In this document: one piece after another, positions 4,541 to 45,840 of the stretch
Layout of the letters: every line of letters begins with the position of its first letter
How positions within the stretch are numbered: position 1 is the stretch's first letter
Source: a virus
Lineage: Duplodnaviria > Caudoviricetes
Virus record (IMG/VR): IMGVR_UViG_3300049828_000271
Span: 1-48,854 of that record
Strand: one strand, 5' to 3'
Length of the DNA: 48,854 bases
Notes under the pieces: generated by a model
The model's database searches: none
Told to the model about the DNA's origin: nothing
Seen by the model: only the letters and a program-made list of their open reading frames with translations
Made by a program: the position numbers and the translations under genes

Positions 4541-6130
4541 TTAGAATGATAGAACGAGGCGAATTTGCTCGGTCTGGTCTACGTCACGAACAATTTTTGC
4601 TCTGTTCTCAATATATAGTACGTCACCGGTAAAGAGCTTTATATCCGGCTCTTCTACACCCAAAATAGCGGCTGTAGCGGTGCTACCGACAAGTGTGGCA
4701 CCCACGGTTGGAGTACCCCGAACATTGTTGATGAACAGTTCATTCAAAGTTGGATTCCAGTTAACCACAACTCCCGTCATGGATGCACTCTCTAAACTGG
4801 TCCCGATATAGACTACTTCATCGTTTACGTAATTTGATCCACCTGTAGACGTTACGCCAAGTTTGGTGGTGGTACGATAAACAGATTCAGTAGCATAGTC
4901 ACTGTTGGCTAGTAATGGATCACGAAGGAGGGAAATCTGACGAAAATCGAATGGATATGAACCTCCACCCACAGGAATTAGATCACCCTCAGTGCCTTCA
5001 AAGGTCACAACGGTCATAATTGAATAACATCCAAGCTCTTTAGCCGGATTTGATCCGTGTCCTCCGGGTGGAGAAATCTCAACAGAGAGAATAGCGATGT
5101 TGCCAGTAGCCAATTGATCTGAATCGTTAACGGTTACGTTGGCATAGGTGTATCCACTTCCGCCATTGATGATATTTAGGTCAATAATAACACCCGATTG
5201 AACCTCTGCCGTGATAGACGCACCTTCACCGTCGCCGGTTACTGTAATGATTGACAAGGAATTAGAGTTACCACTTTCACCGTTATTCAGGAAGTAACCA
5301 GAACCACCGTCTTCAATGTTGTAAGTGTCGATACGTCCATCGACTGCGCCTGCTATCACGGAGTTATCCGAGTTGACTGGCATCCAGTTATTCGTAAAGA
5401 ATTTCTGTTTCAAACCATATGGAATGGTGTATAGGTACTTCCACTTATAGCCATCGCCAGTTAGAATATATGGATTCTCTGGGAGTTGTCCATCAATGTC
5501 AATAGTTGGTTCGATTGTCGAAGGAGCATTGATATTGTTGAACAGGCATTTAAAAACCTGATCTTTTGAGTTCCGGCAATAGAAATTGTTCGCAAAGAAT
5601 GGATATTTGTCATCTACTCTGAAAACATCCCCATTAGTAACATCGTAGGTGAATACGCTATTGACGATCAAATGTGTGGTGTTGACTCCGATAACCTGTC
5701 TAGTCTCGGAATTCAGGCTAACTGTGTTGCCGATACTGATGTTGCCAGAAAATACTGCGGTATTCGCAACTACAGTGTTACCGGTTGCATTTGCAGTACC
5801 GACATAAAGGGTGTCTATGTGGGAAAATAGCTGAATGTGGTCGTGGTATTCATCGTAGGTTGTATTAGTGACCCAATCAACGCGAGGAACTACCAGTGCA
5901 GTGTCAGCCGATTCTACCTTTTTCATTGCCATCATGTCTCGGAAGACTTGATTGACTGAATCTGTGGTATAAACAACATTTTCAATTTCGTCAGAGGTTT
6001 CAGTGTCGTCCCCACCCCAACGAATAGGACGACCAATCGCAACATAGGTGTTGGCGGCAACAGGAAACATATCCGCTTTTATGAAGTTTACAATTTCATA
6101 TTTCAACAGTGGAGTGATTGATGCTTTCAT
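4541..6130 (-). CDS. gp8: Baseplate wedge subunit gp8
   Basis: VVPRVDW, VFKCLFN, DGYKWKYLYTI, PPGGHGSNPAKELG, DFRQISLLRDP and GDVLYIENR..I.R...Q.E.I.LVL.F motifs. Confidence 0.9.
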   Translation of the reverse strand: MKASITPLLKYEIVNFIKADMFPVAANTYVAIGRPIRWGGDDTETSDEIENVVYTTDSVNQVFRDMMAMKKVESADTALVVPRVDWVTNTTYDEYHDHIQLFSHIDTLYVGTANATGNTVVANTAVFSGNISIGNTVSLNSETRQVIGVNTTHLIVNSVFTYDVTNGDVFRVDDKYPFFANNFYCRNSKDQVFKCLFNNINAPSTIEPTIDIDGQLPENPYILTGDGYKWKYLYTIPYGLKQKFFTNNWMPVNSDNSVIAGAVDGRIDTYNIEDGGSGYFLNNGESGNSNSLSIITVTGDGEGASITAEVQSGVIIDLNIINGGSGYTYANVTVNDSDQLATGNIAILSVEISPPGGHGSNPAKELGCYSIMTVVTFEGTEGDLIPVGGGSYPFDFRQISLLRDPLLANSDYATESVYRTTTKLGVTSTGGSNYVNDEVVYIGTSLESASMTGVVVNWNPTLNELFINNVRGTPTVGATLVGSTATAAILGVEEPDIKLFTGDVLYIENRAKIVRDVDQTEQIRLVLSF

Positions 6131-9100
6131 TATTCCGTTACCTTGATAATTGTATATGCCGTTTCAGATGTGAAGTCAGGAACCACCTGATAAACTAGAG
6201 TAGAGTTGGTGGTGTTTGCGTTGTTATTTAGGGTCAATGTATTACCACTTCCCACTGTAACCTGATAAGTTTCGACGTTTCCGACGTTAATTCTAACGGT
6301 ATCTCCGGTAGAGATAAAGTCTCCAATAGCATTGGTATTTCCAGTAATGTATACGGTGGCATTGTTGGCATTCGTCGTGAGTCTACCTTGCCCAACATAT
6401 ATGAAATTAGATTCGACTCGCAGAGAATCTTCGGATTCTATAAATGTGATAGTCTTGGCTTGAGAACGCAATGGATGAACAGTATCCTCAATCAGTAACA
6501 TATCTCCGATGCTTGCAGTCGAATCAAACAAGGTATTTGAACCAGTGACTACCTTATTGTACGAATTGGAAACGTGTACCGTTGCGTTGGCATTAACAAA
6601 CGGAATGGTGGAAGAGATGGAATCTGAAACAATCGTTTCAGCAAGTTCAGATTTCGAAATTGTGCGACCTAGCATTATCATTCCGATTGGATGGACAATA
6701 TCCTTCATTGACGCTGCATACTGTGAAAGAGATTTCTCAGACTCAACCACATAAGAATAATTGTGATAAGTCTTTTCGTCCTGAATCTTCTTGTCCGACG
6801 ACAGGAATCCGTCCGTGTTGATATAGAATCCGTTGAACTTGATCAAACCATTATAGAAGTCTGCGACACCCTTAGCCTTTCCATTACCATAGAACCATGG
6901 GTTAGGAAGTCCGGTTGCCTTGACTGCTTCTGGATATGCGTCAGGTGCAGGCACTTTTGCGGCAGTGTTGACTGAAAAGATAACGCCGCGAGTCGATGTA
7001 AATGCAATCGAAGGTTGGAAGCTTTCGAAAGAGTTACCAGAATAATTGAATAGTCGAAGTAGATTATCGCTTCGATTGTAGGACTTGACGATACCTTGGA
7101 ACGATGCTGTTGCCAACGTATCACCTTGATAGACTCTATCTCCTTCATTGATGGATTCATTATCCGCGATGCCATCAATGATCATGTCTACAACTTTCAA
7201 GGATATGATTGGTGTAATCGTGTAACCAGAGCCGCGATATATCATGCGAATATCTTTTACTCGACCGATAGCACCCGTTTCAATACCCACAGAAACACCC
7301 TCACCAAAACCATATGGGGTGAGAGAAGCGTTAATACCGTTTGCAGACGTTACACTAGCACTAATAGAACCATAGTAACCCTCACCCCTATTGCTGATTG
7401 TGGTACCAACAATGGCTCCGTTTGCACCTACAATGACATTACCAGTAAAACCATAACCAGAACCCCCTACAATGATTGCATCTCCGTTTGCATATCCACT
7501 GCCACCGGCAGAAACATAAACGTGGGCAATTTGCCCCGTTGAATTGATGATCTGTTGAGTGTTTGCGTGTTCTGGGGTGCCGTAAGCGTAATTTTCTGAA
7601 AGATAGGTGTCGCGATAAGACTTGGTTTCGACGGTAGGTGTTGTACGGAAACCATAGCCGCCATTGATGATGTTGTATAGGGAGATACCGCCTGTTTCGA
7701 TAGGCACAAAACTTAGAGCAGAGCAAATGGCAGAGTTAGCATTAACATCCATTTGAGTGTCAAGAACCGCATCAATGGTGTAATTCTGTGTACTAGTAAC
7801 CGTACTGATCAGATTACCTACTAGAATGGTGAGAGGCTTTGAGTTTGCAACAGCATAAAAAGCAACGGTAGCTGGTCCACCAGTCCATCCGGTATTTGCC
7901 GTCAGAATTTTGCCAGTGATGTTAGCCGTTTCGAAGCTTCCGTTTGAGTCAGCGTACCAGTCTTCAAACTGATGCCACTTATCCGTTCCGCTTCCCGGTG
8001 TTCCGTTTAGAGTAACGCTTACGTTTCTCACGTTAGAAGAGAATAACGCCCAATCACCTGTATTAGAAAGAGTTAGATCGGATGCATATCCGATTGGCAT
8101 TTTATCCACGATGATTGTTTCGACAAATCTAGCATTGGTATTGGTAAAAGCATTTGCTGTGGTAATACCTGTTACACGTATATCGGTCGATTGGTTTGCA
8201 CTAGGGTCATCACCAATCGACCGATATACTGTAACTTGCGTATTAGAAAATGTGCGATATCCATAACCGGGAAACGTAACGTAGAGTCCTTCGATACTAC
8301 CCTGCGAAACGTTTCCCACAACCGCAATAGCCTCATTGGTAGGAGGATCGACAGTGATGGATGGAATTGATCCCGGTGTTGTTGTCTGTCCATAGAGAAT
8401 CTTGATGGACAAAGATTGTGTATCACTTGAAACACCGTTTGTACAACCAACCGTGAAGACGAAAGTTCCCGCAACCGTTGGAATTCCTGAAATTTCTCCC
8501 GACGTACCATTCAATGACAGCCCTGTTGGTAGAATACCAGATACCATATACCATGAAGTTACTTCACCGTCTGCCGTCAACTGTCCAGTGTAGCCACCAT
8601 TTCTGAGTCCTTCTGGCAATGCCAATGTGGTCATGGTGACAGTTGTACCATTAGCCACGTACACGTTAACGACACTATTGTACTGAACCAATCTACCTGC
8701 AACTGGATCAGTCGAAATTACATATCCGCTAGGAACTGTTGGACTGGATTCTTCTATGATATTTGTCGTGAGACTTGCAATGCCCGTAATCGTGGAAATT
8801 GCAGTAGCCTGTATGTTTCCAACTACGTTAGGAACACGATCACCCACTTGAATAGTGACGGTTTCAACATATGTTGATCCATACAAATCCATCCATTGAA
8901 TTTGAGTGTCAGTAGAACCATAGACAGTAGGAGTTCCGCTCAGAATGGAAGTAGAAACACTAAGTCCTGATGGTAGAGCGTCCAGTGCCGTAACAGTTAC
9001 CGGATCACCTTCTGGGTCTGGGACGTATACTGTCAAATCTACAGGGTCGAGGGTTATGTCTTTCTGATACAACAGAGGTTCATTAAAGGCTGTACCAGAA

Positions 9101-10470
9101 GGACCATAGTTATTGAAAACTAGAGTTCCTGCACCGAAGTATGCGCCAACCGAGTAATCATAAACGTTTACGTCAATGAACTGTCTAAATTCAACTCCAC
9201 CTGAATTATAGCTGACAGTACCATCATCAGCACAGACAACAGGATATGAATCTGGTGTAGTTACTTGATCAATGACGACAGTATCAGCAACGTCTGCACC
9301 TGTTCCAAAGAAAGGTGATGTTGGGTCTACGCTTGCGAGTGTAGAAAATGCTTTTCCTGTTGGTGGATTTAGATACTGACTTGCAAGTGTAATGCGCGAC
9401 GAGTCACCACCGGCTGAGTTCAACACAAAATACAAGTCGTATCGTGGAAACGCAGGATTGTCTGATACCGTTAGAACTAGTGTGTCTGCAACCGATACTG
9501 CCTTGTTAGCACTAGCCTTTGCAGTATTTCCATTACCATCTTGTCCAGCCTTGATCTGTGCAATAGACGGCGCAGTGCTTCCTGCAAGAACTGCAACGGC
9601 AAAAGCATTACAACTCTGGTTTGGCGTGAAACTAGCAGTGTACGAAGTATTAGTCTTACTTGTTACCGTTGGCGCAACCGTAAACGTAGGTGGAGAAGAG
9701 GTCGTCAGGAATTGCCATGGGTCTGAGTACAAACTACTCATGAATGCATTATCCCACGCAGCATAGTTGTTGATGTAAACCATTGCTGCCAAAACCTTGA
9801 AGTTGGCAGGAGCAGAATATGGTACGCTGTTTGGCAAAGTGCCGATACCATATCTGTTTGGATTGTTCGCAGTTGTCGTTGGATAGTCTAGTGCCGTACC
9901 CGTAGTTTCCTGCCAACCTACATCAGTATTGGATACAGCCGCAAGAGTTCCATCTTCGAACTTTCCGGCAAAAAGTCTCCACGTTCTATCATAAGAGCCT
10001 TGATTGGTGTTTACGGCAAAAGCGTTTACGTTATCATGAGCGTAAGAATCGAAATCCAAACTTGGATCGGCAAATTGTGGCTGTCCGCGAATAGCGTATC
10101 TAGGATAGCTATAACTAGAGTAGGCTGCACCCATCATGTATTCGTTGGCAGGACCAGTTGTGTTTGTGGATGCTCCAATTAAAACCAACAATAAAGAGTT
10201 TGCAGCTTCCCAAGTGTGGGTGTTGCTCATGGCAATTTGCTGCAACCCACCTACATTGGCTGTAGTGATGATCGTTCCTAATGCATTAGATGCCCATAAG
10301 TTTGCACTCGCAACACCGTTCTCATAAAGAACCATGTCGATTTTTGTGGCTGACTTTCCCTTGTCCTGAGATATCGTGCCAGTATTTTCATCGAACATCC
10401 ATAAGTGGTCTGGACATTTTGCATGTCCAGTGACGACTGAGTATGATGTTGGTTTTGTTGTAATTGCCAT
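6130..10470 (-). CDS. Fusion of LamG-like, Ig-like, PASTA and He_PIG domains to the C-terminal part of baseplate wedge gp7
   Basis: About 6130-8345 carries GxGY repeats and the gp7-type DGFLSSDKKIQD..YHNYSYVV.S...VHPIGM motif. PASTA at about 8653-8836; He_PIG motif GILPTGLSLNGTSGEISGIPT. Confidence 0.8.
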   Translation of the reverse strand: MAITTKPTSYSVVTGHAKCPDHLWMFDENTGTISQDKGKSATKIDMVLYENGVASANLWASNALGTIITTANVGGLQQIAMSNTHTWEAANSLLLVLIGASTNTTGPANEYMMGAAYSSYSYPRYAIRGQPQFADPSLDFDSYAHDNVNAFAVNTNQGSYDRTWRLFAGKFEDGTLAAVSNTDVGWQETTGTALDYPTTTANNPNRYGIGTLPNSVPYSAPANFKVLAAMVYINNYAAWDNAFMSSLYSDPWQFLTTSSPPTFTVAPTVTSKTNTSYTASFTPNQSCNAFAVAVLAGSTAPSIAQIKAGQDGNGNTAKASANKAVSVADTLVLTVSDNPAFPRYDLYFVLNSAGGDSSRITLASQYLNPPTGKAFSTLASVDPTSPFFGTGADVADTVVIDQVTTPDSYPVVCADDGTVSYNSGGVEFRQFIDVNVYDYSVGAYFGAGTLVFNNYGPSGTAFNEPLLYQKDITLDPVDLTVYVPDPEGDPVTVTALDALPSGLSVSTSILSGTPTVYGSTDTQIQWMDLYGSTYVETVTIQVGDRVPNVVGNIQATAISTITGIASLTTNIIEESSPTVPSGYVISTDPVAGRLVQYNSVVNVYVANGTTVTMTTLALPEGLRNGGYTGQLTADGEVTSWYMVSGILPTGLSLNGTSGEISGIPTVAGTFVFTVGCTNGVSSDTQSLSIKILYGQTTTPGSIPSITVDPPTNEAIAVVGNVSQGSIEGLYVTFPGYGYRTFSNTQVTVYRSIGDDPSANQSTDIRVTGITTANAFTNTNARFVETIIVDKMPIGYASDLTLSNTGDWALFSSNVRNVSVTLNGTPGSGTDKWHQFEDWYADSNGSFETANITGKILTANTGWTGGPATVAFYAVANSKPLTILVGNLISTVTSTQNYTIDAVLDTQMDVNANSAICSALSFVPIETGGISLYNIINGGYGFRTTPTVETKSYRDTYLSENYAYGTPEHANTQQIINSTGQIAHVYVSAGGSGYANGDAIIVGGSGYGFTGNVIVGANGAIVGTTISNRGEGYYGSISASVTSANGINASLTPYGFGEGVSVGIETGAIGRVKDIRMIYRGSGYTITPIISLKVVDMIIDGIADNESINEGDRVYQGDTLATASFQGIVKSYNRSDNLLRLFNYSGNSFESFQPSIAFTSTRGVIFSVNTAAKVPAPDAYPEAVKATGLPNPWFYGNGKAKGVADFYNGLIKFNGFYINTDGFLSSDKKIQDEKTYHNYSYVVESEKSLSQYAASMKDIVHPIGMIMLGRTISKSELAETIVSDSISSTIPFVNANATVHVSNSYNKVVTGSNTLFDSTASIGDMLLIEDTVHPLRSQAKTITFIESEDSLRVESNFIYVGQGRLTTNANNATVYITGNTNAIGDFISTGDTVRINVGNVETYQVTVGSGNTLTLNNNANTTNSTLVYQVVPDFTSETAYTIIKVTE

Positions 10471-10481
10471 TATTCTTTATC

Positions 10482-13400
10482 CTATGGATTTGGATTTGCC
10501 ATCAATGTAGCATGAACATCGCTGAATCCTGCGCCATCAGCCATTCTTCCAAATCTAATCGCATCCCAACCAATAAATATTGGTCCAGTCACCGTAGAGT
10601 TATTATCAGGTTTCTTCCAACCATACTTATACATTCTAGGGGAACTCATCATCACCATATCGGCAGAACTATTCATTGCCAATCCCACTGGTGTATTGTA
10701 TTTGTTTAGAACGCGAGTCATTGTGCGGTTTCCATTTCCATCAACCGTTGAACCAGTAGACTTCCAGACTTGCATGATTCCAGTATTACCAACAAATGTC
10801 TTGCCATAAATTGTCGTATTTACCGTATATGGATTGATTTTAATGCGCCACACGAAATCAGTCCACTTACCAATGTCATTGGTGATTTCACCCAAATTGT
10901 AGTAAGAGTATACTCCTGATCCTTCTGTAACACCTGTTCCAGTTGCACCAGACACATGCCAAGATGCGGTATTGCTGTTGGGTAATGAACCAAAATTCCA
11001 CGGTGCAAGAATAGCCAAAACAGCCATAGAACCATTGTCTTGTTGTTCAAAACCAAATATAGATTGAAGAGCTAGAATTGCTCCGTTGCCACGAACAGAA
11101 CCATTTTTTCCAAGGTCAGTTTCAAAATTGGGTGGAAGATAGATTGAATAACCAATCCAGACCTCATCATTCCACGCCCATCGTTGTCCGGTTCCTTGCG
11201 CCGCCGCAAAGTTTCTCGGTTTATCTAATAATGCCGTACCATCAGTATAGTTACCGTCATTTGGTCCGGCTGCACCATTCAGTCCACAATAGTCTTTAGT
11301 CTTGTAGATTGTCGAACCTAACATGTAATTTCCAGTACGAGGATTAACTGTACCAGAAGAACCGTTTGGTGTTGCTGGATAAGTGAAACTTGTCTTTACA
11401 GCCACATCGTATGTTCCACTGGTTGTCAAACCGGCATTAGTTGGTTGGTAGGTTGTAGCCGGACCAAGCCCCTGCAAACCTGCTTCATAACTTTGCCAAT
11501 TCACATAACCACTATCTTTCATGGCTTTAACATATAGCCCATCAGGATTTGTTCCTTGCGATTTGATTGAACCTGTTTCAAAATCGACAGTGTTGTAGAT
11601 TCCAACTCTTGTTGTCGTCGTAGCAAATTCAAAAGCACCCTTAGATGCCGTACCGCTACGAGAAACGCCGGGAAGCGCAGGATTGCTAGAGTTGAGGTCG
11701 GTGTAGGCAATATCTGTTCCCAATGTACCGCCTGCGGCATCTTCAGCCGTCAACTTATAGGCAGAAGTTAATGTACCGCTGACTTTGTTATTGGCTTGAG
11801 TACCCGGTGAAGTCAGATAATATGTACCTCTGGTATTGTTGATCAAGACATTGTTACGCATCCACCCACCATACACGCTAGTAAGTGCTATACCATAGCC
11901 TCTGCAATTTACACAGGTGTTGTTGTAAACGTAGGCTGTTGGTAGAACTGTTCCTGCGTCACCAGATAGTTGAATGCCGTTACCAATGATTCCCGTCCAA
12001 GTAGCTTTACCAGTGTTTGCGCACAAGTTGTTGTATATGCGAGTAATAAACGTTGTATATGGTCCGTAGGAATAGACTCCACCATTCGCAGGCTGAAGAT
12101 CGGTTGCAGGACCAAATTTGACATTGAATGGTGGACCTTCATTACATGCAACAACAATACCATGCTCTCCGATATTTTCAAGATAGTTGTTGTAAATGTC
12201 ACCGGTTCCACCGGTTATCGTAATTCCCGGCAATTGCCCTGTTTGTTCTGGATTGTTCAAACCAACGTTAGTGACCTTGTTGCCGTAGATGGAGTTGACA
12301 CCTTCCCACCAGTTTTTGCCGTTGATTCCATCGCGTCCACAGTATTCGACAATATTGTTTCGAACTGTGATGTTCTTGATTGGTGGCTCGTAATCCGAAT
12401 AATTCGAACCGATGTACATACCTTCACCTTTGAAATGATGAATGTAGCACGATTCGATGATCAAATTGGATTTGAATACACCCCTACCCCAGACGGTCGA
12501 TTGGTCATTTGGGTTAAATCCAATTCCACCGGGACCAGTGTATGTTGTTGCATTGCCATCACATTCAATATTTCTGATGTGTACATTAGCCCACATTCCT
12601 TTAATTTTAAGGGTATGAACTCCCGGTGTAGTAAATTCAGACTTAATTCCATAAGTTTGTCCACCGTTACTTCCATCCAGAAGTGTGTTCTGTGGAGCAG
12701 TAATCAAGAAAATGAAGTCAACAGAACCAGATAGTGTGACATTTCCAGCCAAAGGATTACGAATGATTGTAGGATTACTGCCCGAAGTACCAATTGGATT
12801 TCTGATTTCCAACGGTCCTCTGGTTCCTGCGGTTGCAGTTCTAGTTGATGTTCCTGCACTCAATTCAATGATACAACCGGGAACAGAGTTAGGTGCTTTA
12901 CTACCCGTACCATCAGCCAATGGTTGAGACACATCACAGTTGAATAGTGACACGTTCGATGGAATGATGAAGTGTGCTTCTGTTGGTGGAGGAGGAGCCA
13001 CGGTAATCGTAACCACACAAACATGCTCGGAATACAATCCACCCGTATCTGTAATTCTAACCGTAAGGGTTCTGGTTGCGGCTGTGGCTGATGCACTCAC
13101 AGTTAGAATTCCAGTAGTGTTGGCAATTGTGATACCAGTGTATGAAGTTCCTTGCAATGTGTATGTGACCGCATCAAAATTAGGATCAGAGCCATGTTGT
13201 CCAAAGTTGTAGCTACCCCCTACGCCTTGCACGTATGAGAGTACAGGAGGTGCATTAGTAAATATTGGCGCATCGTTTGGTGGAGGTGGTGGAATAGCCG
13301 TAATCGTAACCACACAAACATGCTCGGAGAATAAACCACCAGAATCAGTGATTCGAATAGTGAGTTCTCTTGTTGCTGCAACGGCACTGGTTGATACAGT

Positions 13401-15962
13401 AAGAATACCAGTTGCAGTATTCATCGAAATACCAGTATATTGAGTGCCTTGCAACGAGTATGTTACTGGATTACCGTCTGGGTCTGAACCATGCTGTCCA
13501 AAGTTATAGCTGCCGCCGACTGTTTCGGTAAATCCTAATACATCAGGCGCGTTTGTGAAACTTGGTGGTAGATTCGTAGAAGCAATTGTCACTTGACAAT
13601 TGACTTCAGAATACAACGCACCCGAATCGGTGATTCTAATTCTCAGATTTCTAATAGCCGCAACAGCATCAGTTCCAACGGCGAGAATTCCTGTCGGACT
13701 ATCTATCGAAATACCAGTATATTGAGTGCCTTGCAACGAGTATGTTACTGGATTACCGTCTGGGTCTGAACCATGCTGTCCAAAGTTATAGCTGCCGCCT
13801 ACACCTTCAGTGTATGAGAGCAGCGGTGGAGCATTTCTGATTGATGGTGTACCGTTTGGATTATTTCCATTCTTGAATTTGGTTGTGATCACACCATCAG
13901 GAGTTGGTACTGCGCGAATCTGAATATATCCAAGTACACCAGAAGTAACACCAATGGATAGAGCTTTAGTATCGCTCTGAACACCATTTGTACAGCCTAC
14001 GGTAAAGTTGTAACTGCCGAGAGTTGTTGGTGTACCTGAAATAATTCCACTCGTAGGATTCAATGACAATCCAGTTGGTAGTGTTCCTGATTCCAAAGAC
14101 CATGAAGTGACAACACCACTGGCTGTCAATTGTGCAGAATAGTAGTTATTTCTAATGGCTGACGATAGCGAAGTTGTTGTGATACTGATAGACGATCCGT
14201 TAGCCACGTAAACTTCAACGGCACTGTTATGTCTAACCAAAGTTGCCGCAACTGGATCAGTCGAAATTACTGTTCCGTTAGCCACGTTTGGATTAGAAAC
14301 GAGCGTGACGTTTGCTGTCAGACTCGCAACACCGGTAATCGTTGAAACTGCGGTAGCTTGTGGATCACCTACAACATCAGGAACAAGATCACCAACTTGA
14401 ATCGTGATGGTATTTGAAAAAGTAGCCCCGTATTGATCTGCCCATTGTATAGTTGTATTGGTTTGTCCGTATACGGTTGGAGTTCCAATTAAATCAGAAG
14501 AGCTTACGCTAAGTCCTGTTGGTAGAGTATTCTGTGCAGTTGCAGTAATGATATCACCTTCAGCATCATACGCATAATCATTCAAAGGTATTGGAGCAAG
14601 AGCTATATTTCTTTGAATTAGTAATATGTTTAGATTATTTGCGCCGATAGTTGGGGTGAGATTGTTGAAGATCAACGTTCCTGCACCCATGTATTGTCCC
14701 GCTGAATAATCGTAGGCATCAGCCGCAATCAATTGTCGAGCAGAATCTCCGTTTGCAGTAAAACTAACTGTACCATCGGATACGCAGGAAATATCGTAGT
14801 TATCAGGACTGGTTACAGCCTCAAGAACTACGGTGTCATTGGTAGCAACACCCGTACCATAGAAAGGACTGGTGGTATCCAGAGTTCCAATTGTGGCAAA
14901 TATCTTACCTGTTGGTGCATCCAGATATTGTCCTGTGAGGGAAACGATGGATGAATTACTCGTTGCAGAAGAAAATACAAAGTGCAAATCGTATCTTGGA
15001 AATGCAGGTGTATCAGATGGAGTTAGAATTACAGTATTTGCACCTACTGGAACAGCTTTGGTGACGCTTGCTTTTGCAGTGGTTCCGCTGCCATTCTGTC
15101 CGGCTTTGATTTGTGCCATGGATGGTGTTGTGCTGCCTGCAATCGTTGCAACACCGTACATGGTTCCAGTCATGCTAGGTGTGAATCCAACAGTATAGGC
15201 TGTATCGGATTGACTGGATACAGTAGGGGCTGAAGTAAACGTGACTGATTCAGAATAATTGTTGGCATTGGTGATGAATGCATTTTCTTGCAACGGTGCA
15301 TCATAGGTATCTGCCATCATGAAGTGGTCAGTATAGAAAACATCACCTTCGGCTGAAGAGTGAACACCTACGTTAATTACAGTAAATGCCGAAGATATGC
15401 AATAGGTTGTGCTGAGTGCTGCACTGATTTCGTTTGCAGAAACCAACGAAAGGGAATTGTTGCCTGCATCCGTGTACATTTCGATCTTGAGTTTTCCACC
15501 GGGAATATCCCATCGACCAATCATGTAGTACCATGTTGCGGCTGATAATGTGCCTTGAGCAATGTTTGCAGAAACGGCTGCGCTTGTCGAACCATTGGCG
15601 CACTTGAACAACATTCCACCGGTAGAGATTCCTTCGAAAGCAAGTCTGTCAGCCGTATTTGCTCCGTAGGTGCGCATTGCAACAACAGAGCCATTAGCTA
15701 ATGATCCAGTCAACCATTTGAACCAACAGGACATTGCACCCACAGAAATGTTTGGTTGTGCTGCATTAGGGGTAATGTTGGTTGCAGTGAACGTGATGCT
15801 TCCTGCGGTGTTTGCAGCTTGTGTCAGTCCATAGGCACCCGTCTTTCCAGCCGCGCCTAGAAATGTCGTGTTGGCATTGGAACCAGTTGTGTCACCGGAT
15901 GAATAATCAGTGCCACTTAAATTGTTGCTGTTTTCAGCATCGTAGAAAAACCTAAGCGACAT
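10482..15962 (-). CDS. Multidomain adhesin/depolymerase-like protein (LamG-like, Ig, PASTA, He_PIG, three cadherin-like repeats, beta-helix, polysaccharide-lyase-like jelly roll)
   Basis: Likely start MSLRFF at 15962 with GGAG 9 nt upstream. Motifs: GEGMYIGSN...ITVRNNIVE beta-helix, a GAFEF cap, and C-terminal DFETG...WIGYSIYLP...GKWTDFV...WDAIRFG. Confidence 0.7.
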   Translation of the reverse strand: MSLRFFYDAENSNNLSGTDYSSGDTTGSNANTTFLGAAGKTGAYGLTQAANTAGSITFTATNITPNAAQPNISVGAMSCWFKWLTGSLANGSVVAMRTYGANTADRLAFEGISTGGMLFKCANGSTSAAVSANIAQGTLSAATWYYMIGRWDIPGGKLKIEMYTDAGNNSLSLVSANEISAALSTTYCISSAFTVINVGVHSSAEGDVFYTDHFMMADTYDAPLQENAFITNANNYSESVTFTSAPTVSSQSDTAYTVGFTPSMTGTMYGVATIAGSTTPSMAQIKAGQNGSGTTAKASVTKAVPVGANTVILTPSDTPAFPRYDLHFVFSSATSNSSIVSLTGQYLDAPTGKIFATIGTLDTTSPFYGTGVATNDTVVLEAVTSPDNYDISCVSDGTVSFTANGDSARQLIAADAYDYSAGQYMGAGTLIFNNLTPTIGANNLNILLIQRNIALAPIPLNDYAYDAEGDIITATAQNTLPTGLSVSSSDLIGTPTVYGQTNTTIQWADQYGATFSNTITIQVGDLVPDVVGDPQATAVSTITGVASLTANVTLVSNPNVANGTVISTDPVAATLVRHNSAVEVYVANGSSISITTTSLSSAIRNNYYSAQLTASGVVTSWSLESGTLPTGLSLNPTSGIISGTPTTLGSYNFTVGCTNGVQSDTKALSIGVTSGVLGYIQIRAVPTPDGVITTKFKNGNNPNGTPSIRNAPPLLSYTEGVGGSYNFGQHGSDPDGNPVTYSLQGTQYTGISIDSPTGILAVGTDAVAAIRNLRIRITDSGALYSEVNCQVTIASTNLPPSFTNAPDVLGFTETVGGSYNFGQHGSDPDGNPVTYSLQGTQYTGISMNTATGILTVSTSAVAATRELTIRITDSGGLFSEHVCVVTITAIPPPPPNDAPIFTNAPPVLSYVQGVGGSYNFGQHGSDPNFDAVTYTLQGTSYTGITIANTTGILTVSASATAATRTLTVRITDTGGLYSEHVCVVTITVAPPPPTEAHFIIPSNVSLFNCDVSQPLADGTGSKAPNSVPGCIIELSAGTSTRTATAGTRGPLEIRNPIGTSGSNPTIIRNPLAGNVTLSGSVDFIFLITAPQNTLLDGSNGGQTYGIKSEFTTPGVHTLKIKGMWANVHIRNIECDGNATTYTGPGGIGFNPNDQSTVWGRGVFKSNLIIESCYIHHFKGEGMYIGSNYSDYEPPIKNITVRNNIVEYCGRDGINGKNWWEGVNSIYGNKVTNVGLNNPEQTGQLPGITITGGTGDIYNNYLENIGEHGIVVACNEGPPFNVKFGPATDLQPANGGVYSYGPYTTFITRIYNNLCANTGKATWTGIIGNGIQLSGDAGTVLPTAYVYNNTCVNCRGYGIALTSVYGGWMRNNVLINNTRGTYYLTSPGTQANNKVSGTLTSAYKLTAEDAAGGTLGTDIAYTDLNSSNPALPGVSRSGTASKGAFEFATTTTRVGIYNTVDFETGSIKSQGTNPDGLYVKAMKDSGYVNWQSYEAGLQGLGPATTYQPTNAGLTTSGTYDVAVKTSFTYPATPNGSSGTVNPRTGNYMLGSTIYKTKDYCGLNGAAGPNDGNYTDGTALLDKPRNFAAAQGTGQRWAWNDEVWIGYSIYLPPNFETDLGKNGSVRGNGAILALQSIFGFEQQDNGSMAVLAILAPWNFGSLPNSNTASWHVSGATGTGVTEGSGVYSYYNLGEITNDIGKWTDFVWRIKINPYTVNTTIYGKTFVGNTGIMQVWKSTGSTVDGNGNRTMTRVLNKYNTPVGLAMNSSADMVMMSSPRMYKYGWKKPDNNSTVTGPIFIGWDAIRFGRMADGAGFSDVHATLMANPNP
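13423..13799. repeat. Identical 95-bp direct repeat (13423-13517 and 13705-13799) within the cadherin-like repeats
   Basis: Base-by-base match atcgaaataccagtatattgag...aagttatagctgccgcc with 282-bp spacing; a third, diverged copy lies near 13130-13220. Confidence 0.95.
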
Positions 15963-17745
15963 ATTCGAATGCTCCCTGATCTGCACTTGCACCTGAAGGA
16001 CGAACAACTACACCATCAAAGTCTGTAAATGGATATCCACTGATGCCAGCATCACGCGCAGGAGAGGAAGCAGTCAAACGATAATTTCTTTCTGGGTCAT
16101 TAAAGAAATTTTGTGCTGCAACCGTGCCACTACGATTATTGGTTACGGTAATATTTGACAATGACGTTGCAGGACTAAATGATCCACAATTGGCTGCAAG
16201 ATTGTTGCGAATAAAGCTACCTGAAGCCGCATCAGATTCGATGGTACATGGATTTCCGTTTGGTGCGCGAACAATGGTGTTATTGTAGAGTTGTCCTCTA
16301 GGTGTGGCTAAAGCCTGTCCCGCTCTTCCCAGAGCAGAAGAACCCACGTTAATTCCATTATTGCCGGGATCGACAATAACGTTATTGTAGGCAATCTGAT
16401 CAAGTATTCCATAGGATGCAGGAATATCATTGAGCCAGAAAGTCAATCCGCTATTGAAGCAAAGTTCAAAATGATTTCCCCATGCCTGATATGTTCCATC
16501 AAGAAGCTGACATGCGTTAGAATGTCCATCATCCCCGGCAAAGCCTGCATTGTAGATGTAGTTGCCATACACTACATTTGTTCCGCTTGCCCACGACTTC
16601 AACTGAAATCCTGTCCAGTTGGTATTTTCGATTCTGTTGTAACGAATCGTCGCATTTCTGCAAGGAAGTGAGCCAGTGTACCAGTTAGGACCAATGTACA
16701 TTCCTTCGCCTTCAGTGTTTTTGACCCAACAGTATTCTATGGTAATATTTTCTTGCCACTTGCCTGCATGATTTGCTACAAGATATTCATTACTGTTGGT
16801 CGATATTCCGATACCGTTGGAAGTAACCGAGTTGGCATTATTCTGCCATCCACCATCAATTTCGATATAAGCTAGAATGCAGTTGTCAGTGATGCCAAAT
16901 GTACTTTGATTAGATGATGCAGAAAGCTTTACGTAAGAAGAAATACCTTCCTTATCATTGGTTGCGGCATTCTTTGCATACATGATCTTAATACCACAAG
17001 AACGATTTGAGGTACGAGCCGCCATGTATCCGTCTATCTTGAAGAATCTGCAATCTGTGAATTCCAAGGCAAATCCACCGGGGGCTGGATCAACGCGACG
17101 AATTATAGCCGGTGTACTTCCACTTGTCGGTGCCTTGATGTAAATAAGATCAGAAAGTGAAGTTCCGCGAATGTTTATGAATTTTATTGGACCATGATGC
17201 GTTACACCACTGGTTGCCTCCAATACAATAGTATCTCCACCGGAAGGAATGGTTTTTCCTGATGTAGAAAGAGATTCCCATCTAACTGCAACGCTGTTGA
17301 GTGTATATGCTACTTCACTTGCGCCATTGATGGTGCGCTGTGCGGACGATACAGGAATGACAAAATCAGCCACACTCGCGACGGCAGTAATCGTTACCTG
17401 ACAAGTGAAATTAGAAGATAACAAACCGGGATCGGTGATACTAATTACAAGATTTCTTACAGCCGCCGTTGCATTGGTTCCTACGGTTAACAATCCCGTA
17501 TTGCTCATTGTAATGCCAGTGTAGGAAGTTCCTACCAGTGCATAAGTCAATGGAGAATCGTTGTCTGGATCAGTTCCATAAGCTCCAAAATTGAATGTTC
17601 CACCCGTACCTTGAATGAAGGAGAGTGTCGTCGGTGCGCCAGACAATGAAGGAGTGCCGTTAGGGTTATTGCCGTCCCGATACTTGGAAGAAACAATACC
17701 CGAGGGCATTGGAACCGCAGTAATTAGAATATTTCCGAGTGCCAT
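15952..17745 (-). CDS. Cadherin/Ig-like domain plus right-handed beta-helix protein (putative depolymerase/adhesin)
   Basis: ATG at 17745. GEGMYIGPN and ATIRYNRIEN beta-helix motifs, C-terminal DFDG..RP.G...DQGAFEY; paralogous to the middle of the next gene. Confidence 0.75.
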   Translation of the reverse strand: MALGNILITAVPMPSGIVSSKYRDGNNPNGTPSLSGAPTTLSFIQGTGGTFNFGAYGTDPDNDSPLTYALVGTSYTGITMSNTGLLTVGTNATAAVRNLVISITDPGLLSSNFTCQVTITAVASVADFVIPVSSAQRTINGASEVAYTLNSVAVRWESLSTSGKTIPSGGDTIVLEATSGVTHHGPIKFINIRGTSLSDLIYIKAPTSGSTPAIIRRVDPAPGGFALEFTDCRFFKIDGYMAARTSNRSCGIKIMYAKNAATNDKEGISSYVKLSASSNQSTFGITDNCILAYIEIDGGWQNNANSVTSNGIGISTNSNEYLVANHAGKWQENITIEYCWVKNTEGEGMYIGPNWYTGSLPCRNATIRYNRIENTNWTGFQLKSWASGTNVVYGNYIYNAGFAGDDGHSNACQLLDGTYQAWGNHFELCFNSGLTFWLNDIPASYGILDQIAYNNVIVDPGNNGINVGSSALGRAGQALATPRGQLYNNTIVRAPNGNPCTIESDAASGSFIRNNLAANCGSFSPATSLSNITVTNNRSGTVAAQNFFNDPERNYRLTASSPARDAGISGYPFTDFDGVVVRPSGASADQGAFEYVA

Positions 17746-17746
17746 G

Positions 17747-18544
17747 TTACTCAATTACTCCTGAGAAGATCACTACCGGATCACCTACGTTGTAGGAAAG
17801 TCCGCGTCTTTTCTGTTGAGGGTCAGTTACGATGTTAGAATCCACTCTGATGCCAGACAATGCGCCAAGAATCATTTCAGAAAAGACTTTCTCTACACCA
17901 TTTTCGTCTGTGTACGGAATTTCAAGGTATTCACCGTTGGTAAAGTCGCGAAAAACGTTCGAAACGTACATTTCCAGAATTTCGTTGCCAAAAACCTTGT
18001 CAATGGTCTTGTTTGCAGACTCAATGATGCAGGTTGCACCTGAAACGTTGCCCGTAGCTTTGTGCTTTTCTAGCAAATTTACGTCAATGGATAGGTTGGC
18101 TTCACTCAGAGTCAACTGAAAGGCTTGCGGCAGCTTCCATTTTCCGTCCGAAGCGATTAGAATTTGCTTCTTGGGATAGTAAACCTGAATCTCTTGCCCG
18201 TAAAGGACGCGAAATAGCCACTTGACAGACTCTTCTGAACCCTTCTTGACATAAAACTCTCGCGCACCTTTGAGAATCTTGACCAAATCCAGTTCCGAAT
18301 TCTCTGGAAAGTAAGGAAGCAATTCCTGCTTGAACAGTCGAATGAAAGGATCAAGAGTTTCGTCAATGTCTCGGTACTTGGCTGAGTTCATGATATGGTA
18401 GACAGTATTTCCCTTGCTCTCGTCTTCTAGCCATTCATAGTAAAGCTCAAGAAAACGCTTAAACTGAGGATGATCTGCACGAACAAAATCCGGTAGCTGC
18501 CGATTGACAAGCGAGGAAATGGTCAGTTCAGTGTTTTGAGACAT
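17747..18544 (-). CDS. gp7: Baseplate wedge gp7, N-terminal fragment
   Basis: ISSLVNRQLPDFVRADHPQFKRFLELYYEWLE and FYVKKGSEESVKWLFRVLYG...YPKKQILIASDGKW; directly after gp6. Confidence 0.8.
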   Translation of the reverse strand: MSQNTELTISSLVNRQLPDFVRADHPQFKRFLELYYEWLEDESKGNTVYHIMNSAKYRDIDETLDPFIRLFKQELLPYFPENSELDLVKILKGAREFYVKKGSEESVKWLFRVLYGQEIQVYYPKKQILIASDGKWKLPQAFQLTLSEANLSIDVNLLEKHKATGNVSGATCIIESANKTIDKVFGNEILEMYVSNVFRDFTNGEYLEIPYTDENGVEKVFSEMILGALSGIRVDSNIVTDPQQKRRGLSYNVGDPVVIFSGVIE

Positions 18545-18550
18545 GTTGCT

Positions 18551-20605
18551 TTATACCGCAGAAACTCTTACGTCAATTGCGGCTGGATCGGTTGCATCCA
18601 GTGTAAGAATTGCGTTGCGAGTCGTAGAAAAGACATTCGTGTTTGGCTGCGCTTTGAAAACCATCGTACCAAACGGATCATTAACCATGGTTGGCATGAA
18701 GCTATTTAGTTCCAAATAGCCTTCGTCATAGTAAATGGTTCCTGCGTTGGTGGAAATGATTCTCTTCAAAGAATTCTGGTCGTAATAGAAGATTCGAAGC
18801 AATCCCTTCTTGCCTTGTAGAACGCACTTGAGTTTTGCGCCAGAACCCGAACCACCTGAAATGGTCGCAACCGCAGTCGAATATCCCGAACCTGCATTAG
18901 TGACGACAATGCTCTTGACCTTGCCGTTCACGATGATTGCAGTCGCTTGCGCACCGGTTCCATCACCTTCGATTGCCACGGAAGGAATTTCGGTATAGTT
19001 GTCGCCCGTTGCAACCACTTCGATTGAGTCCACACCTGTAAAGGACTGAGGGACTTCCTCAATAAAGGCATTGCGCTCGACATTGAATTCGTCAATGTAA
19101 CCGAACGATGGCTCGGAATATAGACGGTCCAGAGCAGTTCCTTTCTTGATCGGCACGTAAAAGTCTAATTTGTAGGACTTGGACTGATTGATCAACGGGC
19201 GGAATCTCTTCTCAATGACGACTCTGACTGAGTTGTTTTCAATGGAAGGGTCTGCGTCATCAATGGCTCGCGAGAGCTTGCTCATCTTAAAGGTGTTGTT
19301 GAACGTGTTCAAATATGAATTAGAGAAATCCACGATGGCTGAGTACACTGCGGTCTGAATACCGCCTGCGGTCTTGGTGGTCTTACGAGGATCATAGACC
19401 ACATCGACCACAAAGTTCATGTAGTTGTAATCAGGAGCGACGTATTCGGGAGTGACCGTCAAAACCGAAATGGGCGCAAGAACGTTGTCCTTCATGTGCT
19501 GAATCTCGGACTGCGTAACTTCATAGTTGCCGCGAGGCTTGCAAGAAAAGAAAATCTTGCCATAGACGGGCGGAACGTTTTCTTCGCCACCCCAGACAGC
19601 CACGGAGTCAAAGTATGGATAGTTGCGATTGATCAGCGCAATGTAATCGTTCTTAGTGACTGCGCGATTCTGGGCAATGAAGCTCTTGGGCGCAGTGAAC
19701 TTGATCTGATCCGTCGTTTCCGCAGCCGTTCCCGCAGAGCTTTCCGTGACCAGTTCGATGCTGACAGTGGCTCCCGGCATCGGATTGTCGGAAAGAGTGA
19801 AGATTCGAATGCCGTTGGCTGGATTGCCAGAAGTCACGACATAAGAGACAATCACGATGTTACCATTTTCCAGAGCCTTGCCCAGAATGTCGTCGCCAAA
19901 GGAAATCTGATACTTGCCGAGGCGATTTTCTTCTAGGTAATAGACTGGCGCAGAGGAAATGACCGAGGTTGAATCCGTAGCCAGTTCAAAGGTTTCTAGA
20001 GAGAAATTGTTGACACTCTTCTGGATTTGTACCGTCAGAGTCGAAGTATCAATGCCCGTATCTGGCAGGACGAAAACCTGCTTCTCATTGGTCTGGCTAC
20101 TGTAGTTGAAGACATAAGAGACAGGATTACCTTCCTTGATCTGGACGTTTTCGAAGACAAAGAATCCGTTGGCATCCTTTGTGATCACACGTTGCTCGAC
20201 CGAAACGAAGGTGTAGGCTTGCCCGTCTTTTGGAGTTGAAGTGAACTTAGTAAACTTCGGCAGCGTCATGGCTGAGTTCGAACCACCCGAAACTTCCTCA
20301 AAGGAAACGTTTAGAGTGGCTTGTGACGCAACTCGCGATCTTGGGCAATACCCCAATAATTTTGCGTGACTCACAACACTTTGTCTTAGTTGCGCAGAAT
20401 CTAGGAACATTTCGTTCGCGAGCATGTTCATGTAGTAAGCAGAATAATGAGTGTTATACGCAAGCACATCTAACAGAACTGACAAGCCAGAACCATCAAA
20501 ATTATAATCTGAAAACTCTTCTTGCGACTGCATAAAAGTTTTGAGATTCTGTTTGATTGTGTCAAAATCAAGTTCAGTGATTTTTAGGGGTGGGTGGTTA
20601 CTCAT
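18551..20605 (-). CDS. gp6: Baseplate wedge subunit gp6
   Basis: LDFDTIKQNLK, LLDVLAYNTHY..YY.NM.ANEMFLDSA, QNRAVTKNDY and WGGEENVPPVYGKIF motifs. Confidence 0.95.
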   Translation of the reverse strand: MSNHPPLKITELDFDTIKQNLKTFMQSQEEFSDYNFDGSGLSVLLDVLAYNTHYSAYYMNMLANEMFLDSAQLRQSVVSHAKLLGYCPRSRVASQATLNVSFEEVSGGSNSAMTLPKFTKFTSTPKDGQAYTFVSVEQRVITKDANGFFVFENVQIKEGNPVSYVFNYSSQTNEKQVFVLPDTGIDTSTLTVQIQKSVNNFSLETFELATDSTSVISSAPVYYLEENRLGKYQISFGDDILGKALENGNIVIVSYVVTSGNPANGIRIFTLSDNPMPGATVSIELVTESSAGTAAETTDQIKFTAPKSFIAQNRAVTKNDYIALINRNYPYFDSVAVWGGEENVPPVYGKIFFSCKPRGNYEVTQSEIQHMKDNVLAPISVLTVTPEYVAPDYNYMNFVVDVVYDPRKTTKTAGGIQTAVYSAIVDFSNSYLNTFNNTFKMSKLSRAIDDADPSIENNSVRVVIEKRFRPLINQSKSYKLDFYVPIKKGTALDRLYSEPSFGYIDEFNVERNAFIEEVPQSFTGVDSIEVVATGDNYTEIPSVAIEGDGTGAQATAIIVNGKVKSIVVTNAGSGYSTAVATISGGSGSGAKLKCVLQGKKGLLRIFYYDQNSLKRIISTNAGTIYYDEGYLELNSFMPTMVNDPFGTMVFKAQPNTNVFSTTRNAILTLDATDPAAIDVRVSAV

Positions 20606-21171
20606 GCTGCTTCTATCCTATATCCGTAGATTGACGTTCGCTTTCCGTTTGCGACGTTCTGAACTGAGCCGTGGTTGAGTCCGACTTCCTTTGACCATTT
20701 TGAAAGATTCTTGATGATCATTTGCTCGCCGCTTGGGGTTGTGACCTTATACGACTTAGCGTTGATATCTGGCGCATTCTTTATGTTTCCGTTGGCGCGA
20801 TTGAAACGCATTCTTTCTGCGCTCGCTGCTCTACGTCCAGAGTCTTCCCAAGTTTTGCGCATTTTTGCTTTGGTTTCTTCTGTATACTTGCGACCGGTTT
20901 GCCGTTCGATCAATTTTTGCTTTCGTTCATCAGTCCACGATGCTGATGCTGCGACAAACCATTCCGGTGAGTATCGTGCGCGTTTCCACGCTTCTTCCTT
21001 ACTTATTTGTCCCGACAAAGTTCGCCACGCGATTTCATCGTAAGTGTTGCCATGATCTTCCCATAGCTTACGATGAGCTTCGGCATGTTCTTCAACTGTA
21101 AGCTCAATTAGGTTTTCTGGGTCGTCGATGCCACCCATATGCCTTGGAACGATATGATGCCAATGCTTCAT
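20602..21171 (-). mobile_element. Freestanding HNH homing endonuclease with NUMOD3-like DNA-binding repeats
   Basis: HHIVPRHMGG.DDPENLIELTVEEHAEAH nuclease motif, GRKYTEETKAKMR, and a C-terminal HTH-like region; ATGA overlaps on both sides. Confidence 0.85.
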
Positions 21172-27514: not shown

Positions 27515-27521
27515 TATTTAG
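27515..27521 (-). promoter_or_regulatory. Putative late promoter CTAAATA upstream of gp48
   Basis: Variant of the T4 late promoter TATAAATA; the same heptamer occurs upstream of gp25 (21754-21760), gp2 and gp4. Confidence 0.55.
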
Positions 27522-36955: not shown

Positions 36956-36984
36956 AAAAGGACAAGGGGAGTCGCCTCCCCTTG
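36956..36984 (-). terminator. Intrinsic terminator after the tmRNA
   Basis: CAAGGGGAG-GCGA-CTCCCCTTG followed by TCCTTTT. Confidence 0.75.
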
Positions 36985-37295: not shown

Positions 37296-37311
37296 TACCA
37301 CTATAATCGAA

Positions 37312-45614: not shown

Positions 45615-45661
45615 GATAAACTCCTTATCTTGCTGTTGTGGAGAGTGGGTCTATCCCACTC
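45612..45661 (-). promoter_or_regulatory. Two-hairpin RNA leader of nadV
   Basis: GAGTGGG-ATAGA-CCCACTC followed by GATAA-GGAGT-TTATC-ATG. Confidence 0.7.
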
Positions 45662-45836: not shown

Positions 45837-45840
45837 GATA

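Follow-up and report, generated by a model that had tools for sequence, protein, structure and literature searches.

gp7 as a scaffold and as a carrier of cargo

The baseplate wedge protein gp7 connects the inner baseplate with the periphery that binds receptors, is thought to relay the contraction trigger, and is described as a single chain. The gp7 of T4 is one 1032-aa monomer (PMC3004832), and host-binding cargo carried on gp7 is already known (PMC10457771, PMC8894135, PMC1079782). In the cyanomyoviruses P-SSM2 (orf113) and P-SSM4 (orf080), one ORF joins a gp7 homologue to tail-fibre-like sequence of very large size (PMC1079782), an inserted loop of the XM1 gp7 orthologue gp17 binds tail spikes (PMC10457771), the gp7-like part of AlgoCIS Alg12 has been termed a hotspot of re-engineering (PMC8894135), and Gp119 of Bacillus phage Vp4, a different wedge subunit of the A511 gp105 type, binds cells and contains inserted CBMs (PMC11406892). 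The accessible text of these reports mentions no split in XM1 gp17, Alg12, or Vp4 Gp119. One ancestral gene found as two functional ORFs is described for phage DNA polymerase and ribonucleotide reductase (PMC1079782); in split phage enzymes, the interruption is often an intron or a homing endonuclease.

Here, we analyzed a 48,854-nt stretch of a tailed phage genome (the window), in which the break runs through gp7 itself and the cargo occupies a new internal N terminus, unlike the single-ORF fusions described for the cyanomyoviruses. The same gp6-gp7-gp8-vrlC order is found in VrlC-bearing T4-like phages, including phiM12 (gp135), DLP6 (gp265), vB_OspM_OC, and the metagenomic P0005-P0124. Unlike in the window, their intact gp7 is one ORF without LamG, PASTA, or Ig cargo, with in-frame insertions at other sites and none at the window's break loop. 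A conserved split through gp7 was not found in the literature searched, an absence that carries little weight given the limited subscription coverage.

Two collinear halves of gp7 lie 9.4 kb apart

The wedge scaffold gp7 is encoded as two separate, conserved genes in this phage lineage. On the minus strand, the locus is ordered as follows, with the gp7 sequence divided between the second and fifth genes.

18551..20605, minus strand: gp6 wedge subunit, upstream neighbour of gp7-N
17747..18544, minus strand: gp7-N, 265 aa, ending ...PVVIFSGVIE, TAA; helical core, start of the T4 765-856-like domain, beta domain, two barrel strands
15952..17745, minus strand: ORF B1, 597 aa, ATG start, no gp7 sequence
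10482..15962, minus strand: ORF A1-B2, 1826 aa, ATG start
6130..10470, minus strand: ORF A2-gp7C, 1446 aa, cargo and gp7 C-part
6130..8337, minus strand: gp7 C-part, 735 aa; the rest of the barrel, the beta arm, the strands that close the T4 765-856-like domain, the HPxG segment, and beta domains at the C terminus
4541..6130, minus strand: gp8 wedge subunit, downstream neighbour of gp7C
525..4529, minus strand: VrlC-like DUF4815 baseplate protein, after gp8

The initial annotation had placed gp7 sequence in two parts about 9.4 kb apart, with two large genes between them; the distance is 9,409 nt, and the two genes are ORF B1 and ORF A1-B2. In the 1446-aa ORF, gp7 similarity returns at residue 709-713 (codon 712 begins at 8337), after about 700 aa of other domains, as had been noted. 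The four ORFs are as tightly coupled as claimed, with a 1-nt gap between gp7-N and ORF B1, an 11-nt overlap between ORF B1 and ORF A1-B2, and an 11-nt gap before ORF A2-gp7C, which overlaps gp8 by 1 nt; the frame changes at each of the three inter-ORF junctions. The full four-gene order was seen in the window contig only, and the one comparable locus, L052, stops 335 nt past the gp7-N stop codon. Promoter and terminator scans of the locus were uninformative.

The N-half matches residues 1-262 of intact gp7 relatives of ~1000 aa, and the stretch from residue ~269 to their end is matched by the C-terminal 735 aa of the 1446-aa ORF. Against P0006, for example, the halves match 5-262 and 269-1002, their summed length is 1000 aa versus 1002, and about 6 gp7 residues are missing at the break. 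Aligning both parts to intact homologues had been proposed as a check, and adjacent, non-overlapping matches were found in all 120 longer homologues listed (best 120 of 924), none of which had a match to the two middle ORFs. Identity between the N-half and metagenomic intact relatives is 61 to 86%; the N-half also matches PF23786 (E 3e-11, 43.6 bits, Pfam cut-off 27) and, in a PDB search, T4 and KP1 gp7 (E 0.002 to 0.003).

The gp7 of T4 and KP1 (PDB 5iv5, 5hx2, 9f4a) shares with the window gp7 its position between gp6 and gp8, the helical core segment corresponding to T4 residues ~647-764, and the 765-856 domain. T4 gp7 has ~640 residues before this core, whereas the window's family starts at the core and, unlike T4 gp7, has its 765-856-like domain interrupted by a beta arm of ~600 aa. 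An HPxG motif lies in the C-part (residues 1260-1263 of the 1446-aa ORF), where its segment gives a weak stretch against T4 gp7 865-909 (-2.6 bits, not significant alone). The gp7 family is characterized by a gene between gp6 and gp8 that encodes a single polypeptide chain, which in the virion forms the (gp6)2-gp7 core bundle. The window has the position but two ORFs in different frames with a conserved stop; its gp7 is a split derivative rather than a regular family member. No second gp7 copy was found within the contig, which is 27% complete, so that the genome may hold one elsewhere.

The split is inherited

The gp7-N stop falls at the same residue in six other records (6 of 45 proteins examined), and the window and these six split proteins group together on one side of a branch (99/98) that lies within a set of 62 intact rows. 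All 7 split proteins have loop glycines that differ from those of intact genes. L052, the only further split-clade DNA locus among 37 in metagenome contigs, has an ORF B1 homologue directly after its split gp7-N; viral contigs and genome contigs yielded none. Between the window and L052, gp7-N has evolved under strong purifying selection (dN/dS 0.041 at dS 0.92). The corresponding ratio is 0.10 over the final 40 codons of gp7-N, 0.074 over the opening 107 codons of ORF B1, and 0.059 for gp6. At the other end of the insert, P0171, from another assembly, is a full-length cargo-gp7C fusion that is the same from start to end and 69% identical, rising to 80% in the junction linker. The split is thus inherited and not an artefact. 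Among cultured phages, no split gp7 was found in the best 40 of 339 matches; three of the loci inspected have an intact gene, and a further one runs off the end of its record.

The break cuts a predicted barrel

17759..17878, minus strand: N-half residues 223-262, predicted to form strands a and b of the broken barrel

In the AF2 model of intact P0006, which is weak globally (pTM 0.47; pLDDT 30-63 for residues 1-135), the break falls in a loop inside a predicted six-stranded barrel, between strands 255-259 and 272-278 (pLDDT 79-93 over 251-330). The broken region aligns with a contiguous repeat of the same gp7, residues 535-625 (hhalign E 1.6e-4, probability only 51%), and that repeat matches T4 gp18 99-188 (Z 8.7, rmsd 2.3-2.4, 72-75 aligned). 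The range from residue 136 to about 777-780 of the intact relative's model aligns to T4 gp7 765/766-855/856 (Z 9.9-10.1, rmsd 2.4-2.6, 88-91 aligned), and both segments of this domain are present in the window's halves. The two chains are predicted, from the model of the intact relative, to meet in at least two domains, the cut barrel and the T4 gp7 765-856-like domain. Residues 223-262 are 93 to 100% identical across the six other split proteins, versus a mean of 70% identity to intact relatives. The orphaned strands are the best-conserved part of the N-half and the break lies inside the barrel, which points to noncovalent reassembly; the two gp7 chains likely refold together on the virion. 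Covariation between the halves (152 intact sequences, Neff 80) gave top pairs that were phylogenetic noise. The initial annotation pictured a surface loop of gp7 capturing bacterial-style extracellular domains. The break does lie in a loop, but one inside a predicted domain, and none of 85 intact relatives has an insertion of at least 15 aa there, so this is no hotspot at which insertions are tolerated.

A two-piece gp7 with cargo on its C-half, as originally proposed, is the best reading. With a probability of roughly 0.7, the two-gene gp7 reassembles noncovalently and its C-chain carries a LamG-like/Ig/PASTA arm predicted to bind the host surface. The barrel would be shared, with strands a-b from the N-chain and c-f from the C-chain, and the T4 gp7 765-856-like domain would span both chains, starting at residue 136 and ending near 777. 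The cut in the barrel loop would create a free N terminus on the peripheral arm, from which a large cargo could hang without threading through the nested fold.

An unlikely alternative is that labour is divided with no refolding across the break, the N-half serving as wedge core with gp6 and cargo-gp7C as a peripheral protein that binds gp8 or VrlC. The C-chain carries its own linker strand ahead of the resumed gp7 sequence; this conserved linker is a plausible replacement for strand b and could free the barrel from the N-chain, and minimal gp7 orthologues of only ~240 aa are described (XM1 gp17, PMC10457771). Against such a division stand the peak in N-half conservation at the orphaned strands, the 765-856-like domain drawing residues from both halves in the intact model, and the location in the C-part of the HPxG segment, weakly aligned to gp7 865-909.

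Cargo and the two middle genes

8338..10470, minus strand: cargo, residues 1-711 of the 1446-aa ORF; LamG-like domain, module A copy 2, 20-aa junction linker
15952..17745, minus strand: ORF B1; ~25-aa leader, one cadherin/Ig-like repeat, right-handed beta-helix
10482..15962, minus strand: ORF A1-B2; N-terminal beta domain (LamG-like, putative), module A, internal copy of the B leader, then three Ig/cadherin-like repeats, beta-helix, lyase-fold domain
13938..15329, minus strand: module A copy 1; putative FN3-like plus cadherin-like, PASTA plus He_PIG by Pfam
12998..13811, minus strand: three ~95-aa repeats from a 235-nt repeat family, spaced 297 and 282 nt apart
11622..12980, minus strand: right-handed beta-helix; PF13229 E 3.6e-9, invariant Tyr1198 and Lys1231, conserved acids
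10485..11621, minus strand: beta-jelly-roll domain, last 379 aa of the 1826-aa ORF; AF2 pLDDT 85, pTM 0.89

Only LamG-like/Ig/PASTA modules are fused to gp7, and this arm is predicted to bind the host surface. Module A copy 2 contains PASTA (545-606) and He_PIG (624-691) by Pfam. The LamG-like domain has no Pfam match, and its language-model neighbours are Laminin_G_3 (0.94, 178 shared features). The bacterial-style origin first suggested for the captured domains is conjectural, as the genomic relatives recovered for this one were confined to other phages, in the form of two LamG-like genes (L099, L100) that a viral-contig search returned. The start of L099 resembles that of the 1446-aa ORF. 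Against PDB sequences, the cargo gave nothing significant.

The beta-helix of ORF B1 is assigned by 30% identity to the domain of the 1826-aa ORF, having no Pfam match itself. Matches of the beta-helix to PDB profiles are weak (PL6, E 0.015; lacto-N-biosidase, E 0.034), and its D-G-x-x-x-K motif presumably resembles that of PL9. Beta-helix depolymerases and tailspikes combine a right-handed parallel beta-helix, the feature shared here, with trimer formation, an N-terminal virion anchor, and polysaccharide degradation. The best structural match of the beta-jelly-roll domain is the PL20 glucuronan lyase 2zzj (Foldseek E 8.9e-9), and the fold is common to PL14, PL13, and PL7 lyases, at 10 to 12% identity, TM 0.43 (query) or 0.66 (target), and no PDB sequence match; PF14099 scores 23 bits, under its cut-off of 29.9. 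Candidate catalytic residues, invariant across 43 rows, include Tyr1573, Arg1598, and Tyr1793. The weakest step of the favoured reading, with chances just short of even, is that the two middle proteins are also virion parts, degrading capsule or exopolysaccharide. The conserved ~25-aa leader opens ORF B1, recurs within the 1826-aa ORF, and also opens P0375, where a different domain follows. A homology between this leader and the linker before gp7C was considered and rejected: the two are in register in the DNA alignment but not significantly similar, with 13-mers ranking 7 and 45 of ~1440 and longer windows worse.

The claim that arms are fused to gp7 thus holds for the LamG-like/Ig/PASTA modules, but the beta-helix and PL20-like lyase folds lie in two separate genes without gp7 sequence, so that wedge display of the glycan-degrading folds is conjectural. 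The halves might also reassemble while the cargo is not displayed, being cleaved off or, together with the middle genes, acting outside the virion as released enzymes or assembly aids. The middle proteins have neither gp7 sequence nor a recognised virion anchor, their enzyme activity is deduced from fold only, and 31 of 149 enzyme-domain relatives look signal-peptide-bearing by a crude test. This version is quite improbable, however, since cargo and junction are kept in frame with gp7C in a copy of 69% identity (P0171), none of the three cargo ORFs is signal-peptide-like in the same crude test, and all of them lie within the baseplate gene run.

Origin of the insert

The insert seems to have arisen by tandem duplication of a single unit. 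Amplification of modules had been suggested and is borne out: the module A copies of the two large ORFs share 56% identity, and module B is present twice (ORF B1 and the 1826-aa ORF). A fourth copy of the 235-nt repeat family lies at 17386-17499. The inserted unit may have consisted of gene B, a stop, and the start of gene A, and its later tandem duplication would have produced B1 / A1-B2+lyase / A2-gp7C. Unlike the split phage enzymes, the window shows a load-bearing structural scaffold cut by host-recognition-type genes, one of them fused to gp7.

An intervening sequence removed at the RNA or protein level (a large intron, a split intein, or a ribosome hop) would restore an ordinary gp7. Little gp7 sequence is missing at the break (about 6 residues), and the spacer past the stop is +1 in both the window (1 nt) and L052 (7 nt). 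Yet no intron family reached the Rfam gathering level and Pfam scans gave no intein/Hint domain, though families outside these databases would escape; gp7C continues the reading frame of a conserved cargo ORF, no RNA run was among those listed as carrying this sequence, and every ORF has natural ends common to relatives (the beta-helix C-terminal motif ends 42 of 149 relatives; L099 shares the start), leaving such removal very improbable. An excisable or switchable DNA cassette, with intact and split alleles alternating, is hardly credible: the insert does behave as a unit, apparently duplicated, but the two borders have no word longer than 6 nt in common, the modal value for random pairs, no border repeat of at least 20 nt occurs among the repeat families listed, and the loop glycines are unlike those of intact genes in all 7 split proteins, a single clade. 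Among the low-coverage contigs listed from other runs, none showed a joined allele, a negative of no weight at that depth. Equally implausible is that a single giant ORF was broken up by misassembly or sequencing error, for although this is a metagenomic contig whose three inter-ORF junctions are unbridged by the contigs listed from other runs (24 of 46 pieces), three frame changes would be required, the stop, the next gene, and the fusion recur in six records, L052, and P0171, respectively, and contigs of runs X2 and X4 (one sample, another study) bridge the cargo-gp7C junction with 0 differences (8294-8528 and 8298-8543). Stop-codon reassignment does not join the ORFs.

Implications for the wedge and host recognition

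This lineage keeps a two-piece gp7 over deep synonymous divergence, which suggests that gp7 can do without a covalently continuous arm. The break marks an exact site where a baseplate scaffold can be opened and a 700-residue cargo attached. A bolder and doubtful extension is that the locus encodes a natural split-barrel socket, in which the two strands left on the N-chain would provide a docking edge and, with the ~25-residue leader, form a plug-and-play platform loading exchangeable lectin and lyase arms onto the wedge scaffold; if true, receptor display would have a route of its own apart from tail fibres and tailspikes. The receptor-binding parts of VrlC-type T4-like phages are poorly known, and insertion across a gene boundary followed by tandem duplication would be a concrete route to new host-recognition modules in these phages.

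The split gp7 and its gene neighborhood

The window record is linear, with an estimated completeness of 27%, and carries T4-like baseplate and replication genes; the sequencing runs with window DNA are from freshwater or freshwater sediment. Baseplate genes follow each other on the minus strand in the order gp25, HNH, gp6, gp7-N (a 265-aa ORF), two large ORFs, cargo-gp7C (a 1446-aa ORF whose last 735 aa are gp7C), gp8, and VrlC. A single gp7 gene occupies the corresponding slot in cultured phiM12, DLP6, and vB_OspM_OC, as well as in all 11 of the close metagenomic loci that were inspected. The type of tmRNA encoded hints at a betaproteobacterial host group.

Additional features of the window

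50-298 (-): ORF following vrlC; it matches positions 664-748 of the gp7 profile (E 5.5e-8) and has a small beta domain in common with gp7
20602-21171 (-): HNH homing endonuclease gene separating gp25 from gp6; phiM12 has an HNH gene there too, and L052, a locus from another contig, a different ORF of 51 aa
21719-23386 (-): mostly helical 555-aa ORF between gp5 and gp25, without match in Pfam and PHROG searches; its C terminus has a homologous counterpart in L052
23383-24426: gp5, short, with no lysozyme domain found in domain searches
27518-29788 (-): ORF of 756 aa, carrying a phage lysozyme domain in its interior and adjoining genes of tail tube and gp48-like types
36960-37367 (-): tmRNA gene, permuted and of betaproteobacterial type (Rfam 132 and 106 bits)
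37432-37917 (-): weak PagL-like match, under the cut-off (E 0.004), with a Hydrolase_2 gene adjacent
44241-46926 (-): adjacent NAMPT and NadM-Nudix genes, a two-gene NAD salvage set
48514-48825: RF-1-domain ORF, which may be a second ribosome-rescue gene besides the tmRNA

gp7-N matches PF23786 and T4/KP1 gp7 647-764. All of the best 120 of 924 longer homologues match the N-half as far as residue ~262 and, with their next segment, the 1446-aa ORF from residue ~709-713 on, and none of these 120 matches the two middle ORFs. The halves are collinear and non-overlapping on intact homologues, and they sum to 1000 aa, versus 1002 aa in the intact metagenomic relative P0006. The two-piece gp7 observed in the initial annotation is confirmed. 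About 6 loop residues are replaced at the break, and 9,409 nt separate the halves. Seven intact relatives (P0063, P0067, P0089, P0091, P0092, P0064, and P0077) have arm insertions or an N-half duplication; their insertions are in-frame and elsewhere in the arm, and the duplication lies inside the N-half.

Structural position of the break

In an AlphaFold2 model of P0006 (86 sequences, mean pLDDT 78, pTM 0.47), the break falls in a loop flanked by strands 255-259 and 272-278. A contiguous repeat, residues 535-625, aligns to region 222-330 (hhalign E 1.6e-4, probability 51%); this repeat is found also in the window gp6 and, weakly, in gp8, and its structural match is T4 gp18 99-188 (Z 8.7), a six-stranded barrel. 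Together with the break between strands, this alignment would leave two strands of one predicted domain on the N-half and four on the C-part. Model residues 136 to ~777 align to T4/KP1 gp7 765-856 (Z ~10, 88-91 residues), suggesting that this domain combines an N-half piece with another located deep in the C-part and that the arm interrupts it. The orphan residues 223-262 show 93-100% identity in the split clade versus 70% to intact relatives, the highest among four regions compared. Insertions of at least 15 aa at the break loop occur in 0 of 85 intact relatives and are present elsewhere, which indicates that this loop does not readily accept insertions. The shared domains, the conserved residues 223-262, and the insertion-free loop favor refolding of the halves across the break; that they act apart is unlikely. 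Covariation analysis between the halves was uninformative.

Cargo modules

Module A, residues ~230-690: PASTA and He_PIG domains according to Pfam, plus parts that we read as FN3-like and cadherin-like
Module B: leader, Ig/cadherin-like repeat, and beta-helix, making up ORF B1 (597 aa)

The second middle ORF (1826 aa) has module B again after module A, with three repeats. The claimed amplification of modules is borne out by this second module B and by the 56% identity of the module A copies in the 1826-aa and 1446-aa ORFs; the order B1, A1-B2-lyase, A2-gp7C would be expected if a single inserted unit had been duplicated in tandem. Within the 1446-aa ORF, the N-terminal 250 residues are LamG-like by language-model features (0.94), and this domain forms separate genes in two unrelated viral contigs (L099:18-809 and L100:385-1458), beside the head genes of small phages. 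The beta-helix of the 1826-aa ORF is Pfam-confirmed and has invariant Tyr and Lys and conserved acids. The last 379 aa of this ORF have a confident predicted fold; PL20 is the best structural match, with PL14, PL13, and PL7 lyases next (10-12% identity), so that a lyase activity is putative.

Judged from sequence, the A2 arm (the cargo of the 1446-aa ORF) is the only part covalently attached to gp7. The initial interpretation, in which gp7 displays all these modules, is therefore supported for a two-piece gp7 with fused A2 cargo and lacks support for the beta-helix and lyase-fold domains, which lie in separate ORFs without a gp7 match. These middle proteins have no known virion anchor; their ~25-aa leader, a candidate docking peptide, is conserved before a different domain in the metagenomic protein P0375, and its resemblance to the gp7C linker falls short of significance. 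P0375 (636 aa, 16.9-kb contig) has the ORF B1 leader followed by an FN3-like in place of a cadherin-like domain and a beta-helix 29% identical, which may represent a cargo exchange at this slot. A virion location for the beta-helix and lyase-fold proteins has slightly less than even odds. That the cargo is not displayed at all is improbable.

Inheritance of the split

Among 45 near-length proteins examined, six stop at the same residue as the window N-half, with the same altered loop motif. In a tree of 69 N-half rows (7 split and 62 intact, leaving out more distant matches and four rows that were fragmentary or internally duplicated), a 99/98 branch has the seven split N-halves together on one side, nested within the intact genes, indicating a single origin for the split, which is a derived state. 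In L052, the gp7-N stop is followed by an ORF B1 homologue, 93% identical; between L052 and the window, dN/dS is 0.041 for gp7-N (at dS 0.92), similar to 0.059 for gp6; the start of B1 has a value of 0.074. The cargo-gp7C fusion is present end to end in P0171, from another assembly (69% identity), and its junction is bridged with 0 differences by contigs of runs X2 and X4 of one sample. None of the contigs listed from other runs bridges the three inter-ORF junctions, and the complete four-gene order is seen in the window only.

The ORFs from gp7-N to cargo-gp7C are tightly spaced. Stop-codon reassignment was rejected, as reading TAG or TGA as sense leaves them unjoined. Splicing or hopping, by which the pieces would be joined after all, is very improbable, and an excisable cassette still more so. 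The same stop residue in six other proteins and the frame change at each junction argue that the stops are not errors in one giant ORF, and an artefact is just as remote as the cassette.

Comparison with known systems and proposed mechanism

T4 gp7 is a monomer present in six copies (PMC3004832). In XM1, a loop inserted in the core domain of gp17 binds tail spikes (PMC10457771); the gp7-like part of Alg12 is described as a re-engineering hotspot (PMC8894135); cyanophage gp7 homologues are fused with very large fiber-like genes, and phages also have split enzyme genes (PMC1079782); and, in a Bacillus phage, a CBM-bearing wedge protein binds cells (PMC11406892). VrlC phages have a host-recognition cluster downstream of vrlC (PMC7029224), a region that falls outside the window. 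A split gp7 is absent from the accessible portions of PMC4621102, PMC5813253, and PMC5587285, and no report of one was found in the literature searched, in the portions available, although supplementary gene tables could list such annotations. The window gp7 is like known gp7s that carry receptor-binding parts but, unlike the gp7 family, is not a single chain.

We propose, with a probability of about 70%, that both halves are produced as separate chains, that the N-chain enters the wedge core with gp6, and that the N- and C-chains lock via their shared domains. The new N terminus on the peripheral arm would bear the lectin/Ig/PASTA extension and so allow binding to the host surface; clearing of polysaccharide is a possible role of the co-transcribed beta-helix and lyase-fold proteins.
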